DNA from: an uncultured Alphaproteobacteria bacterium
Lineage (GTDB): Bacteria; Pseudomonadota; Alphaproteobacteria; CAAHEQ01; UBA3637
Assembly: GCA_944391565.1 (NCBI GenBank)
Contig: CALXUB010000004.1
Coordinates: 46,180-110,179, forward strand
Direction of reading: 5' to 3'
Length of the DNA: 64,000 nt
The notes beneath the pieces are model-generated. The model was not told the origin of the DNA and ran no database searches. It saw only the letters and a list, made by a program, of their open reading frames with translations. The position numbers were made by a program, and so were the translations under genes. Shown here one piece after another: positions 1-22,628 of the stretch. Within the stretch, counting starts at the first letter, position 1, and each line of letters starts with the position of its first letter.

Positions 1-2
1 TT

Positions 3-488
3 CGGATTACGCAGATGCAGCCGGATGCAACATTGTTGGATCGCGTGGCGGAATCTTTGGTGCGTCAATACATTGTGATGCGTCATGCGATTGTGTCCGA
101 TGTTGATGAGATGTTGCAACGTTGGGGCGACCGAGGCCCGATTAAATGGATGAGCTCGGATAACGTTTTTGCTGAATTTAACAGAACAACGAGTGAGTCT
201 TTTTCACGGATCCGTCAGGAACGTTTGACACGAGATGTAAATATTTTGTCAGCATATAAGCTGCAAACCGATCGTGTGAACGGCGATATTTGGGATGCCG
301 AGGTGGAGACGATTGACATGTTGCCGGAACGATCAGAACCCGTGCGGCAAACATGGCTGGTTCGCATGCAGATACAATTTTTGAATAAACAGGAAAAGTG
401 GGCAAACCGCTTGAAAAACCCGATTGGTTTTACGGTCGTGCGGTATAGTATTACGCCCAAGGGGAATACGACAACGGTTGGAGAATAA
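3..488 (+). CDS. virB8: VirB8-like T4SS inner-membrane protein, C-terminal part (5' end lies outside window)
   Basis: The reading frame is open from the window edge and there is no in-frame stop upstream of the ATG at 15. The C-terminus ...NPIGFTVVRYSITPK matches the VirB8 C-terminal NTF2-like signature NPLGF.V..Y. The gene sits immediately upstream of virB9/virB10/virB11 homologs. Confidence 0.6.
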   Translation, partial: RITQMQPDATLLDRVAESLVRQYIVMRHAIVSDVDEMLQRWGDRGPIKWMSSDNVFAEFNRTTSESFSRIRQERLTRDVNILSAYKLQTDRVNGDIWDAEVETIDMLPERSEPVRQTWLVRMQIQFLNKQEKWANRLKNPIGFTVVRYSITPKGNTTTVGE

Positions 489-608
489 AAACACTGGAAA
501 AATAACGGTTTGTTAATTTTTATGATTTAATATCATTTTTCAGTAGACTTTTGTTCTAAGTTTGATTTATTTTAGTGTTAGGTGTTAATCAATCGAAAGA
601 GTTCGCAC

Positions 609-2258
609 ATGTCAAAGATAAAAAATACAAAAAAATGGGTGATGATGGCAACGGTGGGCGTGTTTGCGCTGACCTCGACCATTGTTTTGGCGCAACAGGT
701 TCAACCAGGGGATGTGGATGCTGCTCAGATGAGCGATGCCATGGCTCAAACGGCGGGCAGTTTTGATGCCATTAACCTCAGCTATATCACATCGCTCGGA
801 ATGCAACAAAAAGCGTGGAACGATCCGATGCAGCATTTGGGCGAAGGGCAAATTAAGCCGGGTTATTCCCGTTATGTGTGGACACCGGATGTTGTGCTGC
901 CTCTTCGTTTGCGCGAAGGGATGATGACTTTGATTAACTTGCCGACATGGGAATTGATTGAAAAAGTCCATATCGGATCACCTGAATCTTTTGGCGGTGA
1001 AATTGCGGCACCGAACTCTTTGCTGCTTTATGCCGATCCGACTTATTTGGGTGTGGACAGCAACATGATTATCTTTGGCAGATCAGGCAACAGATATGTT
1101 TTCTATCTGCGCAGCGAAACTTATAACACGGATCGGATTACAAATGCGGTTGTGGATGTCTTAGTAGGACCCAAGTATACACCGGTTGCCGATGGCGGTA
1201 CATTGAATATTCCGAATGGTGCTTCCGTGACGGCTGGATCAACGGGAACTGCTCGTGCCGGGGCTCCCGGTTGGGCCAGTGCCGGCAGTATCGGACCCGG
1301 TGTTAATCAAAATCCGACCGTTGGACTGAATACGGCGGGTAATGCACCCAAAAATTGGTTAGAAACCATTCCTGTTGATCCGGAAAAGTTCCGTTTTGAT
1401 ATTGATGTCTTTATTCCGAACCCGAGTGATATTGAGTTAGCTCCGGAACGCGTCTGGCGAGATGATATTTTCACCTACATTGACTTTGGTAAAAAAGCTT
1501 TGACAATGACACAACGGCCGGTTGTCAATTTGATCGTTCAAGGTTCCGAAGTACCGGTTGGTTCTCGGACAAAAGGCGAACACAGTCGCTTGCTGGTTGT
1601 TGAAGGTGTGGGCGATATGGTTTTGCGCAACGGTCAGCGATTGGTTTGCTTGAAAATGCGTCGAGATCCGGCGATGGGGTTGGATCAGACGGATTACTCT
1701 TGGTCGGAAGAAAATCTCTGGCGGGCGGAACAGCCTTCTCAACAGGCACAACCGACCCCGCAGGCCTCCGGGTATGCTGCCACGACGGGAGACATGCAGG
1801 GAATGCAGCTGGTGGAACAGGTGAACATTAATCCCTATGGCGGTGTCACTGAGAACTTCTACAGCAACATGGCTCCTTTGCCTGCAAATGTCAGAAATAA
1901 TCCTCAGGCTTCTCAGGGGATTATGGATGTCATGCAGGGAATGGCTCCCGGGGTATCTGCTGCAGGTGCATCTCGGGCAGCTTTTAACGTGATGCCGGCT
2001 GACAATATTGCCATTGAGTTGGCAACAGGAACGAATATTTCTGATTTGGAGAATAAATGGGAACAAATTCGTTCCAGAAATAAAGCTTTGCTGCAAGGAT
2101 ATAATCCTTACTTCTCCGTTGATACAATGGCAGAAGGCGGTGCGCCTGAATTATTCCGTCTGCGCATTGGTCCTGTGTCTTCGGTCAGTGTCGGGGATGA
2201 TATCTGTGAACAGCTTTCTAAAAAAGGATTGATGTGCTCGGTAATCAGAACACAATAG
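609..2258 (+). CDS. virB9: VirB9/CagX-like T4SS outer-membrane core protein with extended Gly-rich linker and a Q/P/M-rich C-terminal tail ending in a SPOR-like motif
   Basis: A signal peptide (MSKIKNTKKWVMMATVGVFALTSTIVLAQQ) begins at the ATG at 609; the ORF track's start at 582 is a GTG. The N-domain pattern REGMMTLINLPTWELIEKVHIGSPESFGG...NSLLLYADPTYLGVD...GNRYVFYLRS fits VirB9. The C-domain PERVWRDDIFTYIDFGKKAL...PVVNLIVQGSEVPV...LLVVEGVGDMVLRNGQRLVCL fits VirB9. The extra ~190-aa tail ends in IAIELATG...FRLRIGPVSSVSVGDDICEQLSKKGLMC, which resembles a SPOR fold. Confidence 0.7.
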   Translation: MSKIKNTKKWVMMATVGVFALTSTIVLAQQVQPGDVDAAQMSDAMAQTAGSFDAINLSYITSLGMQQKAWNDPMQHLGEGQIKPGYSRYVWTPDVVLPLRLREGMMTLINLPTWELIEKVHIGSPESFGGEIAAPNSLLLYADPTYLGVDSNMIIFGRSGNRYVFYLRSETYNTDRITNAVVDVLVGPKYTPVADGGTLNIPNGASVTAGSTGTARAGAPGWASAGSIGPGVNQNPTVGLNTAGNAPKNWLETIPVDPEKFRFDIDVFIPNPSDIELAPERVWRDDIFTYIDFGKKALTMTQRPVVNLIVQGSEVPVGSRTKGEHSRLLVVEGVGDMVLRNGQRLVCLKMRRDPAMGLDQTDYSWSEENLWRAEQPSQQAQPTPQASGYAATTGDMQGMQLVEQVNINPYGGVTENFYSNMAPLPANVRNNPQASQGIMDVMQGMAPGVSAAGASRAAFNVMPADNIAIELATGTNISDLENKWEQIRSRNKALLQGYNPYFSVDTMAEGGAPELFRLRIGPVSSVSVGDDICEQLSKKGLMCSVIRTQ

Positions 2259-21069: not shown

Positions 21070-21080
21070 GTTTTTTCCTC

Positions 21081-22517
21081 TTAAAGTCCGGCGATTAACC
21101 GTAAACATATAACAATCAAAATACTTAAGACAATCAAAGTAAATAAACAGGATATGAACAAATCCCATGCTTTTTTGGTGTATCCGATTGTTGCCGGGAA
21201 TACAGCCAACACAATATAAAGCGGGAGTAATACGGCCACAAATCCCAAACGAACCAAAATATCAATAAACTTAAACGGAACAACGATAAATAGTATCAAA
21301 TAGCCAATAATCTGTATTAGTGCGATTAAAAACATACCGATATGAGGCAGGCCTAACGGACCGGCAGTCAGTGAATGGACAAGGAAGGTTGCCGCAATTG
21401 CCATTCCCAATACAAAGTTTAAACTGGCTGTTTTGATGACGCAGGATAATCCGTCGTAAACTGTGGAAGACAAAGCTTTCGGATTACCGTTTGTGACAAA
21501 ACGACTGTCATTAGGATCTGATGTGCTGCACAGGTTAACTGAGTTTTGAGAAACGGTCACCGTCGTGCTGGAACAGCCATAGTTCACATCATCAATTGTT
21601 GTGACAGTCGGGGTGATAAAACCGGCCGTTCCCATCAACTGTGTGCTGAGTCCTGTTGCAAACGAAACAACCGGCGTGATGATTAAATCAAAAACTTGAT
21701 AAGACGGTGCCCATAATAATGCGGCACCAAACATCAAACGGAAAAAGGCTTTCAACAGGCTTGTCATGAACTCACCCACGTTTGCGCCGTGAACGACCAG
21801 GAAAAATTGCAAAACAATCCAACAAAGCCACGCGACACCGCCGACCATCAGTGCGCTGAGAAAAATATTTCGCATTTTTTCATAAAAATTTGTGGCCAAA
21901 TCATTAACGATATCAAAAGTGACATCAAATAACGGACAAAACCAACAGCCGTATGAACCGTCCTGATTATAACTGTTTAAAATACGGGAAAATAAAGGTG
22001 TTCGAATGGCCGAACCGGTTGTGAAGGTCGTAGCCCATTGAAAAGTTGTAAACGCCGAAAGTCTGGCAGCATATTCTTCTGTTAAAGCGTTCATGAAAGC
22101 ACAAAGGGCATCATTGTTGGCCGCAACTTGCTGCACAATTTGTTGTGTGTTCTGCAGCAACTGGCGATGTTGCGATTCGGAAGCTTGCAGTGTTTGTGCG
22201 GCAGTATTGCGACATGCTTCAATTTCTTGCTCTGTTCCCGAACAGCGATTGATTGCTTGTTGATAACGCTGATTAGCTAACTGCCGCGCCTGATATTGTA
22301 TCTTCATGGCGTTGTTATAACAGTTTGTGCAATGCGCATCTTCAATATAGGACTGATATGCCGAACGCCAATCTCCGCCCTGAGCTGCTTGCTGTGCTTG
22401 TTCCGTCGTGATCTCCGAGCAATCCCATAAGCAAACTTGCGCCTTCACCGGCAGAGAACAGAAAAAAAGAAAAAGCAATGAAAAAACCAGGGAAAAGGAA
22501 ATGCGCTTATTTATCAT
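21081..22517 (-). CDS. Polytopic membrane protein, VirB6-like paralog 1 (478 aa) with Cys-rich periplasmic N-domain
   Basis: It has a signal peptide (SLVFSLLFLFFCSLPVKAQ) and a ~170-aa N-domain with 8 Cys. The CWFCPLF motif and the FKFIDILVRLGFVAVLLPLYIVLAVFP block are shared with the two downstream paralogs. It is the first gene of the minus-strand operon. Confidence 0.5.
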   Translation of the reverse strand: MINKRISFSLVFSLLFLFFCSLPVKAQVCLWDCSEITTEQAQQAAQGGDWRSAYQSYIEDAHCTNCYNNAMKIQYQARQLANQRYQQAINRCSGTEQEIEACRNTAAQTLQASESQHRQLLQNTQQIVQQVAANNDALCAFMNALTEEYAARLSAFTTFQWATTFTTGSAIRTPLFSRILNSYNQDGSYGCWFCPLFDVTFDIVNDLATNFYEKMRNIFLSALMVGGVAWLCWIVLQFFLVVHGANVGEFMTSLLKAFFRLMFGAALLWAPSYQVFDLIITPVVSFATGLSTQLMGTAGFITPTVTTIDDVNYGCSSTTVTVSQNSVNLCSTSDPNDSRFVTNGNPKALSSTVYDGLSCVIKTASLNFVLGMAIAATFLVHSLTAGPLGLPHIGMFLIALIQIIGYLILFIVVPFKFIDILVRLGFVAVLLPLYIVLAVFPATIGYTKKAWDLFISCLFTLIVLSILIVICLRLIAGL

Positions 22518-22628
22518 TTGATCCTCTTGTGAAAACTTTTTTAATTATTTTTGGAAATAGTATAGACTTAAAATTAACATTCGTCTATTATTATTTTAAT
22601 TGTTTTGGTGTTTTTTAAGGAGGCAAAC

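Follow-up and report, generated by a model that had tools for sequence, protein, structure and literature searches.

The DNA analysed here is a stretch of 64,000 nucleotides (the window) from contig CALXUB010000004.1 of an uncultured Alphaproteobacteria bacterium (assembly GCA_944391565.1, positions 46,180–110,179). Its left part carries genes of a type IV secretion system (T4SS) arranged in two convergent operons: virB8, virB9, virB10 and virB11 on the plus strand, and nine minus-strand genes between positions 10705 and 22517, three of which encode VirB6-like membrane proteins. The boundary between the two operons is a hairpin resembling a bidirectional intrinsic terminator (10674–10700), with a perfect 12-bp stem, a 3-nt loop, an A-run upstream and a T-run downstream. 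The guanine-cytosine (GC) content is 0.44–0.47, close to the figure of about 45% given in the initial annotation.

The virB8–virB11 operon and its giant VirB10

Pfam and NCBIfam matches bear out the naming of the four plus-strand genes in the initial annotation. The operon enters the window within the canonical copy of virB8 (1–488, plus strand; Pfam VirB8, 8.5e-7), whose start lies upstream. The window holds its C-terminal part (157+ codons); the reading frame is open to base 3 and no stop codon precedes position 15. The DNA upstream could be followed in public Logan contigs (L001/L031). They match the window at 99.8% identity, with 18 mismatches in 8,808 bp, add 12.8 kb and contain the full-length VirB8 of 254 amino acids (aa). 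VirB9 (609–2258, plus strand, 549 aa; Pfam CagX/VirB9, 4.3e-12; TIGR02781, 3.3e-8) has a signal peptide, an insertion within the VirB9 domain and, at its C-terminus, a SPOR-like domain (about 2017–2255). Translated from the ATG at 609, it is identical to a product encoded in Logan contigs. The SPOR match (0.0019) is below the Pfam cutoff, and this end of the protein aligns with the SPOR domain of a DacC-like protein of the window with an E-value of 0.008. The VirB11 ATPase (9667–10656, plus strand, 329 aa; TIGR02788, 6.5e-40; Pfam T2SSE, 1.1e-20) has an intact Walker A motif (GGTATGKTT) and an intact His box. All four proteins score far below the NCBIfam 'equivalog' cutoffs, so the system is very divergent.

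VirB10 (2288–9655, plus strand, 2,455 aa; Pfam TrbI, 5.8e-30; NCBIfam T4SS_VirB10, 2.6e-30; ComB10, 1.1e-28) is the longest VirB10 known to us. It consists of an N-terminal transmembrane (TM) helix (residues 20–38), about 100 β-hairpin units of ~17 residues each, which together span ~1,700 residues (~216–1945, bases ~2933–8122), a TrbI/VirB10 domain (residues 2094–2287, bases 8567–9148), and a low-complexity tail rich in Ser, Thr, Gly and Gln. The repeats match the Pfam families Bflower_2 (3.5e-114 in 18 stretches), Bflower (1.4e-45) and DUF3659 (2e-31). The β-flower fold, a relative of Tubby domains, was published in 2023 (PMC10584680). In the Protein Data Bank (PDB), the C-terminal domain is closest to ComB10 of H. 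pylori (5e-18), followed by Xanthomonas VirB10 (1.5e-10) and, in third place, CagY (1.7e-7). The large size is a property of the whole group, with orthologs of 1,930–2,609 aa in 25 of 25 complete related loci. Tandem Repeats Finder detected no DNA-level tandem repeats in the gene; the repeats are old and diverged, so CagY-style recombination between near-identical copies is unlikely, except perhaps among three ~75-residue units (residues ~1719–1940) that are 71–84% identical to one another.

Three VirB6 paralogs and their operon

The minus-strand operon begins with a 478-aa protein (VirB6 paralog 1, 21081–22517), which has a helical periplasmic N-terminal domain followed by a TM core. VirB6 paralog 2, of 419 aa from the likely start (18750–20009; the open reading frame (ORF) extends to 20087), carries a lipoprotein-like signal (LILSSCG). 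The third (16225–18747, 840 aa) has about 10 hydrophobic segments and a Pfam TrbL match of 8.2e-5, below the cutoff; its orthologs in L028, L030 and L036 (locus numbers of our collection) are 818–853 aa long, and some of them match TrbL. The initial annotation had described three paralogous multi-TM proteins, one with a long hydrophilic C-terminal extension. The paralogy stands: BLASTP relates the three at 1e-36, 5e-20 and 5e-9 (24–31% mutual identity), each has 5–10 hydrophobic segments, and all share an invariant CWxC motif. The extension of about 300 residues on the 840-aa copy is mostly hydrophilic, as described, but includes one further hydrophobic segment.

Each of the three window copies falls below the Pfam TrbL cutoff. 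When the family is considered as a whole (the three copies and 15 homologs), TrbL matches 10 of 18 members, the best at 5e-8. An AlphaFold2 (AF2) model of the 478-aa copy has a mean predicted local distance difference test score (pLDDT) of 75.7, and the R388 T4SS, through its TrwI/VirB6 chains, accounts for its top five Foldseek matches in the PDB (Foldseek probability of 0.97–1.0). On the strength of these profile matches and of the modelled fold, we accept the three paralogs as predicted members of the VirB6 family, in keeping with the initial annotation. Sequence searches of the PDB with the VirB6 paralogs, their family profile, VirB9 and both VirB8 copies (the second is described below) gave nothing significant. 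The family is large, with 1,944 representatives at 50% clustering (E ≤ 1e-3), and all representatives inspected are unnamed metagenomic proteins.

Related loci carry up to four VirB6 copies with sizes of up to 1,327 aa. The largest, a fourth paralog on a gut metagenome-assembled genome (MAG) contig (L041, 10044–14027), has an N-terminal Peptidase_M23 domain and a faint match to a VgrG3-like C-terminal region, both ahead of the CxxC motif and the TM core. This fusion of VirB6 with a peptidoglycan hydrolase could serve a VirB1-like wall-opening function or could be an antibacterial module.

Directly after the long VirB6 copy comes a transcription regulator (15170–16111, minus strand, 313 aa) with two XRE-type helix-turn-helix (HTH) domains (Pfam HTH_3, 8e-24 in two stretches), as the regulator label of the initial annotation implied. 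It keeps this position in L002, L003, L028, L030, L036 and L041 at 43–86% identity and, VirB6 copies aside, is the best conserved gene of the operon. It also gives a weak match (1.7e-8, far below the cutoff) to the Wmk family of Wolbachia WO male-killing proteins, which probably reflects only the shared two-HTH domain architecture.

Of the remaining five genes of the operon, four are conserved and have no match in the Pfam and NCBIfam scans. A coiled-coil-type cytoplasmic protein (14306–15148, minus strand, 280 aa), free of matches in both collections, has orthologs in L002, L003, L028, L030, L036 and L041. An acidic cytoplasmic protein (12740–14278, minus strand, 512 aa) has conserved ends, a low-complexity middle and orthologs in all of these loci except L041; no family match, signal peptide or TM segment was detected in it. 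A secreted protein with a signal peptide (11288–12739, minus strand, 483 aa) has orthologs that are 30–85% identical and keep its operon position in L002, L003, L028, L030 and L036. It has no family match, a profile search against the PDB was negative, and an AF2 model made from the single sequence is unusable (pLDDT of 36.7), which leaves a suspected likeness to secretin N-domains unsupported. The last gene encodes a conserved bitopic membrane protein (10705–11307, minus strand, 200 aa, TM residues 84–102), which gave no match in the Pfam and NCBIfam scans; its ortholog in the distant relative L036 is 36% identical and occupies the corresponding place in the operon. The fifth protein (20023–21069, minus strand, 348 aa from the likely start; ORF open to 21168) is poorly conserved, with 31–39% identity in L002 and L030 and no counterpart in L036. 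It had been labelled pilin-like. A signal peptide and a TM segment are present, as is a low-complexity tail rich in Gly, Ser, Thr and Pro, but no VirB2/TrbC match in Pfam or NCBIfam bears the label out. The order of the operon (VirB6, variable gene, VirB6, long VirB6, double-HTH regulator, and relatives of the 280-, 512-, 483- and 200-aa proteins) is kept down to 25% identity.

Scattered modules of a proposed secretion system

In the Logan contigs, the first islet of T4SS genes begins about 7.4 kb upstream of the window, after the genes lptD-surA-rsmA-yggT-folD, and ends at 10656. Its first five genes encode proteins of 241, 240, 790, 252 and 546 aa, four of which have a signal peptide or a hydrophobic N-terminus. 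The 790-aa protein contains a VirB5-family domain (PF07996, 5.3e-6; 27.4 bits against a cutoff of 24.7). At least three of the upstream islet proteins are secreted helical proteins, one of them VirB5-like. They are followed by a 204-aa divergent VirB8 (Pfam, 2.8e-4 for the copy of the window's strain, 7.1e-8 for that of L034), a 58-aa VirB7 lipoprotein and the canonical VirB8. The divergent copy is 22–39% identical to the corresponding region of the canonical one across loci. VirB7 has a lipobox sequence and is matched by VirB7 of an Erythrobacter plasmid in 26 loci. The 546-aa protein was considered as a second VirB9, in the position of rvhB9-I of the Rickettsiales rvh system, and rejected, as BLASTP shows no likeness to VirB9. 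The same upstream layout and flanks are found in L034, whose homolog of the 546-aa protein is only 36% identical. The upstream DNA recommended for inspection in the initial annotation thus yields a VirB5-like protein, a divergent VirB8 and VirB7, and no VirB4 within its 12.8 kb.

A third module is represented in the window by three plus-strand genes divergent from the VirB6 operon (22605–26232; 223, 607 and 321 aa), which have no Pfam matches. In other members of the clade (L024, L037, L038, L039 and L065), the 223- and 321-aa families lie directly upstream of virD4, and among 86 VirD4 loci relatives of the 321-aa protein occur in 70–76 and relatives of the 223-aa protein in 41. The segment 22605–26232 therefore looks like a VirD4 module without VirD4; in the window, the 321-aa gene is followed by glgA instead. 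The complete module consists of the 223-aa relative, the 321-aa relative, VirD4, a ~226-aa gene and a ~150-aa gene. The VirD4 of L024 was detected by tblastn with plasmid probes 2.4 kb downstream of VirB11 (Pfam T4SS-DNA_transf, 1.7e-52), and across the clade VirD4 forms more than 120 protein clusters of 64–100% identity. The two small, conserved genes that always follow virD4 (15549–16684 in L024; also in L037, L038, L039 and L065) include, as the second, one with a SUKH/SMI1-KNR4 (immunity-protein-like) match that is not significant (E of 0.085).

The modules adjoin each other in different pairs: the virB and VirB6 operons in the window, the VirB6 operon and the VirD4 module in L039 and ten other loci, and the virB operon and the VirD4 module in L024 and L065. 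That all three are pairwise adjacent in different lineages supports a single system that includes VirD4. The initial annotation, which found no VirB3, VirB4 or VirD4 in the window (here also the outcome of Pfam scans and tblastn of the 64 kb), had proposed a system that is either split across loci or atypical. Its reading as a partial T4SS locus holds, and the system is indeed split, with further parts supplied by the upstream DNA and by the clade-wide VirD4 module.

A VirB11 search of species-representative genomes returned 26 loci of 65–99% identity, all from gut or rumen MAGs, and VirB7, VirB8, VirB9, a giant VirB10 and VirB11 are present in 26 of the 26. The VirB6 operon directly follows VirB11 only in the two closest relatives (L002 and L003); in the others, housekeeping genes occupy this place. 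The convergent arrangement is a feature of the window and these relatives, not of the clade. All host MAGs are titled 'Alphaproteobacteria bacterium' except two titled 'Lactobacillales'. The latter records, of an 'uncultured Lactobacillales bacterium' (L008 and L023; CAZXTR010000002.1 and CAYJES010000008.1), also carry the cluster and are likely mislabelled or chimeric bins. The MAGs may belong to the GTDB order RF32, and a literature search for RF32 or CAG-239 together with secretion found nothing relevant.

The T4SS locus is chromosomal and appears to be host-owned and vertically inherited rather than part of a mobile element, because it is flanked by housekeeping genes (lptD-surA-rsmA-folD upstream, in L031 and L034; glgA, rlmH, pgpA, RNase J, ligA, recN and bamD downstream), its GC content equals that of the flanks, and family scans of the window and the upstream DNA found no relaxase (nor any replication or partition gene). 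Furthermore, the divergence of the cluster among the MAGs tracks that of the MAGs themselves. Were the locus the transfer machinery of an integrated conjugative element, or what is left of a decaying one, this would explain why the closest annotated VirB7–VirB11 relative serves the conjugation of a plasmid and comes with VirD4 and a MobA relaxase, and why a phage-type integrase is encoded in the window (50502–51602). This integrase is the only one present, and it belongs to a separate segment 28 kb away (47500–64000) of lower GC content (0.39 against 0.44), which also encodes an XRE repressor (55134–55607), a DNA methylase (59380–60774) and the large terminase subunit gpA (61582–63486) and is probably a prophage without relation to the T4SS. 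Taking into account also that the same housekeeping flanks are conserved in a species as distant as L034 and that every related MAG found carries the cluster, we regard a conjugative element or its remnant as very improbable.

Between the window and L002/L003, identity is 99% for VirB11, 93–94% for VirB9, 91–92% for VirB10, 79–83% for VirB8, 77–83% for the VirB6 copies and 67–68% for the 512-aa protein. The envelope parts therefore evolve faster, which could reflect relaxed or diversifying selection on them.

We consider it likely that one vertically inherited and highly divergent P-type (VirB/VirD4) T4SS of a clade of gut and rumen Alphaproteobacteria is encoded in three or more chromosomal islets, two of which lie in the window. 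Of the parts expected of a P-type system, VirB7, VirB9 and VirB10 of the outer-membrane core, VirB6 and VirB8 of the inner membrane, VirB11 in the window and VirD4 across the clade were detected. Of the pilus set, the VirB5-like domain of the 790-aa protein was found, and no VirB2 or VirB3 match occurs in any scanned locus. Islet 1 (to 10656) would contribute the VirB5-like and other secreted helical proteins, the divergent VirB8, VirB7, the canonical VirB8 and VirB9–VirB11; islet 2 (10705–22517), the three VirB6 paralogs, the double-HTH regulator and four conserved proteins. Islet 3 lies elsewhere in relatives, with the 223- and 321-aa relatives, VirD4 and two small proteins, and the window appears to keep only its first genes.

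If the parts act as their homologs do in solved T4SSs, the outer-membrane core would consist of VirB7, VirB9 and the VirB10 C-terminal domain, and the platform and stalk at the inner membrane would be made of both VirB8s and the VirB6 paralogs, with the VirB5-like proteins on top. VirB11 and VirD4 would energise the system and select its substrates, and the double-HTH protein may regulate the islets. Topologically, the ~1,700 repeat residues of VirB10 should be located in the periplasm, between the inner-membrane helix and the outer-membrane domain. These residues and the SPOR-like end of VirB9 may form a large wall-associated scaffold. The function would most likely be contact-dependent, VirD4-dependent translocation of protein effectors into neighbouring bacteria or gut eukaryotes, as has been proposed for Rickettsiales rvh, whose architecture is mirrored here.

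Several points weigh against this assignment. The contig of the window's own strain yielded no VirD4, whose presence in that genome is assumed from the relatives, and VirB4, VirB3 and VirB2 were found neither in the window and its 12.8 kb of upstream DNA nor in about 1.9 Mb of DNA of the clade. No function could be assigned to five conserved genes of the operons. What the VirB10 repeats and the SPOR-like domain would do is our inference, the SPOR match being below the Pfam cutoff. The search for VirB4, VirB3 and VirB2 used tblastn with the proteins of an Erythrobacter plasmid on 37 loci (0.72 Mb) and 86 VirD4 loci (1.16 Mb), complemented by Pfam matches of related contigs and by the genes around distant relatives of VirB6 and VirD4. 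Because this samples no more than about 3% of a given genome, the missing VirB4 does not show its absence.

VirB4 is the one ATPase considered universal in T4SSs, and its repeated absence from the vicinity of modules that so often adjoin each other is what would be seen if the T4SS had turned into an envelope structure that is no longer a canonical channel, for example an adhesion or contact organelle like Bartonella Trw, with the giant VirB10 and multiple VirB5-like proteins at its centre, or a VirB4-less machine. The expanded periplasmic region of VirB10, which exceeds 1,900 residues in all members, the group of secreted helical proteins encoded upstream, the VirB5-like one included, and the fast divergence of VirB8 and VirB10 compared to VirB11 point the same way. 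However, VirB11 and a very well conserved VirD4 are retained here, and Trw is not known to have a VirD4. Given the small fraction of each genome sampled, VirB4 may lie in a fourth islet, as does rvhB4-II in its separate islet in Rickettsia (PMC2653234). The Trw system is described in PMC4676284. We find this envelope reading improbable, if less so than the other alternatives weighed here.

The finding that the modules repeatedly adjoin one another and never VirB4, VirB3 or VirB2 would also fit a bolder proposal, to which we give little credence: an undescribed T4SS lineage outside the recognised Rickettsiales, organised as an rvh-style archipelago, with a VirB10 of more than 2,000 residues of β-flower units and five conserved subunits without known homologs, and powered only by VirB11 and VirD4 in place of a canonical VirB4.

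The affinity of the VirB10 C-terminal domain to ComB10, with near-equal scores of the NCBIfam ComB10 and VirB10 models, raises the possibility of a machine for DNA uptake or release (ComB-like or similar to that of the gonococcal island) rather than a protein translocator, and VirD4-family proteins are indeed DNA-coupling proteins in conjugation. ComB systems are known to lack VirB11 and VirD4 (cf. the discussion of PMC2653234), both of which are present here, none of about 120 loci has a linked relaxase or DNA-processing gene, and the ComB10 similarity reflects only the shared VirB10 fold. We therefore think a DNA machine unlikely and prefer the P-type effector translocator.

Two observations concern genes near the T4SS loci. 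A Sel1-repeat protein (30141–31517, 458 aa; Pfam Sel1, 1.9e-38) is encoded 8 kb from the T4SS genes of the window; Sel1-repeat proteins are T4SS-associated in some pathogens, and nothing links this one to the T4SS. In the relatives, several genes near the T4SS loci start with a type IV prepilin-like leader followed by a hydrophobic helix (…GRSMVEMLGVLAIIGVLS…): L012, 12196–13308; L020, 19182–20375; L022, 12197–13146; and L024, 16871–18118. Multiple genes for pilins or pseudopilins are thus present in the clade as well.

Relation to known secretion systems

The giant VirB10 and the enlarged VirB9 had been taken in the initial annotation as hallmarks of the Helicobacter Cag system. Similar to CagY, VirB10 is very large and has a long internal repeat region before the C-terminal VirB10 domain, and VirB9 is enlarged in both systems. 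This resemblance turns out to be an analogy of size only. The repeats are ~17-residue β-hairpins of the β-flower type with no detectable relationship to the CagY repeats, CagY is a poorer match for the C-terminal domain than either ComB10 or Xanthomonas VirB10, and no operon protein has a family match to the Cag-specific subunits Cag3, CagM and CagT. Despite its name, the Pfam family 'CagX' covers VirB9 proteins in general. Legionella Dot/Icm differs in its type IVB gene set, with DotC/D/H, IcmS/W and others, of which no member was found here; moreover, the repeats of its DotG are pentapeptide repeats, unlike the β-hairpin units of VirB10.

The closest annotated homologs of VirB7–VirB11, at 27–40% identity, are encoded by an Erythrobacter aureus plasmid (NZ_CP031358), with similar Microvirga and Sphingosinicella plasmids. 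Identity is 40% for VirB11, 32% for VirB9 over its full length including the long C-terminal part, about 36% for VirB10 and 27–32% for VirB8, and the order B7-B8-B9-B10-B11 is the same. In the plasmid, these genes belong to one contiguous operon with VirB2, B3, B4, B5, a single B6, VirD4 and the MobA relaxase; its VirB10 is normal-sized (529 aa), and its VirB6-position protein has no detectable similarity to the VirB6 family of the window. An hhalign comparison of the family profile with this protein also found no similarity and is uninformative, as the template is a single sequence. Since the nearest plasmid relative is a complete conjugative VirB2–B11/D4 system, the parts described here descend from a working T4SS.

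The layout is closest to that of the rvh system, whose architecture and proposed roles are described in PMC2653234, PMC4676284 and PMC11077975. Both are chromosomal, vertically inherited P-type T4SSs of alphaproteobacterial hosts, scattered in islets and equipped with VirD4. Both have several tandem, enlarged and mutually very divergent VirB6 proteins (three of 419–840 aa here), multicopy VirB6 being an rvh hallmark (PMC11077975), and a duplicated VirB8 with one divergent copy. The order in R. typhi, rvhB8-II / rvhB7-rvhB8-I-rvhB9-II-rvhB10-rvhB11 (PMC4676284), is that of islet C and is repeated here as divergent B8, B7 lipoprotein, canonical B8, B9, B10 and B11. Some parts of both systems also have affinity to ComB proteins.

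There are differences as well. The rvh system has four or five VirB6 proteins, whereas there are three here and no virB3-virB4 precedes them. It has a duplicated VirB9 and a duplicated VirB4, whereas one VirB9 was seen in these islets and no VirB4 in the DNA searched. It is defined by having no VirB5, whereas a VirB5-like domain that scores above the cutoff is present here. VirB10 is about five times longer than in R. typhi (481 aa), VirD4 is located in its own module rather than after virB11, and the VirB6 operon also includes the double-HTH regulator and four more conserved genes. Gut and rumen MAGs titled simply 'Alphaproteobacteria' are the hosts, and the likeness to rvh described here is one of layout; the PDB searches with both VirB8 copies were uninformative about an affinity to Rvh sequences. 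Of the rvh hallmarks claimed in the initial annotation, the tandem VirB6 copies and the scattered islets thus stand, joined by the duplicated VirB8 with VirB7 between the copies, while the VirB5-like domain and the lack of a second VirB9 in these islets depart from the pattern.

The T4SS described here is real, ordinary in kind and unusual in form: an rvh-like archipelago in gut and rumen Alphaproteobacteria. Islets, multiplied VirB6 and duplicated VirB8 have been treated as a signature of the Rickettsiales (PMC11077975), and a layout near it is fixed in the chromosomes of diverse uncultured Alphaproteobacteria of the human gut and the ruminant forestomach. For these organisms, a conserved, VirD4-equipped T4SS suggests a life in direct contact with bacteria or gut eukaryotes and offers a handle on their lifestyle. 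Compared to the known systems, this one also provides new structural material, in the form of a VirB10 built of about 100 β-hairpin units, VirB6 paralogs with variable periplasmic modules, including the peptidoglycan-hydrolase fusion, and five conserved genes of no known function.

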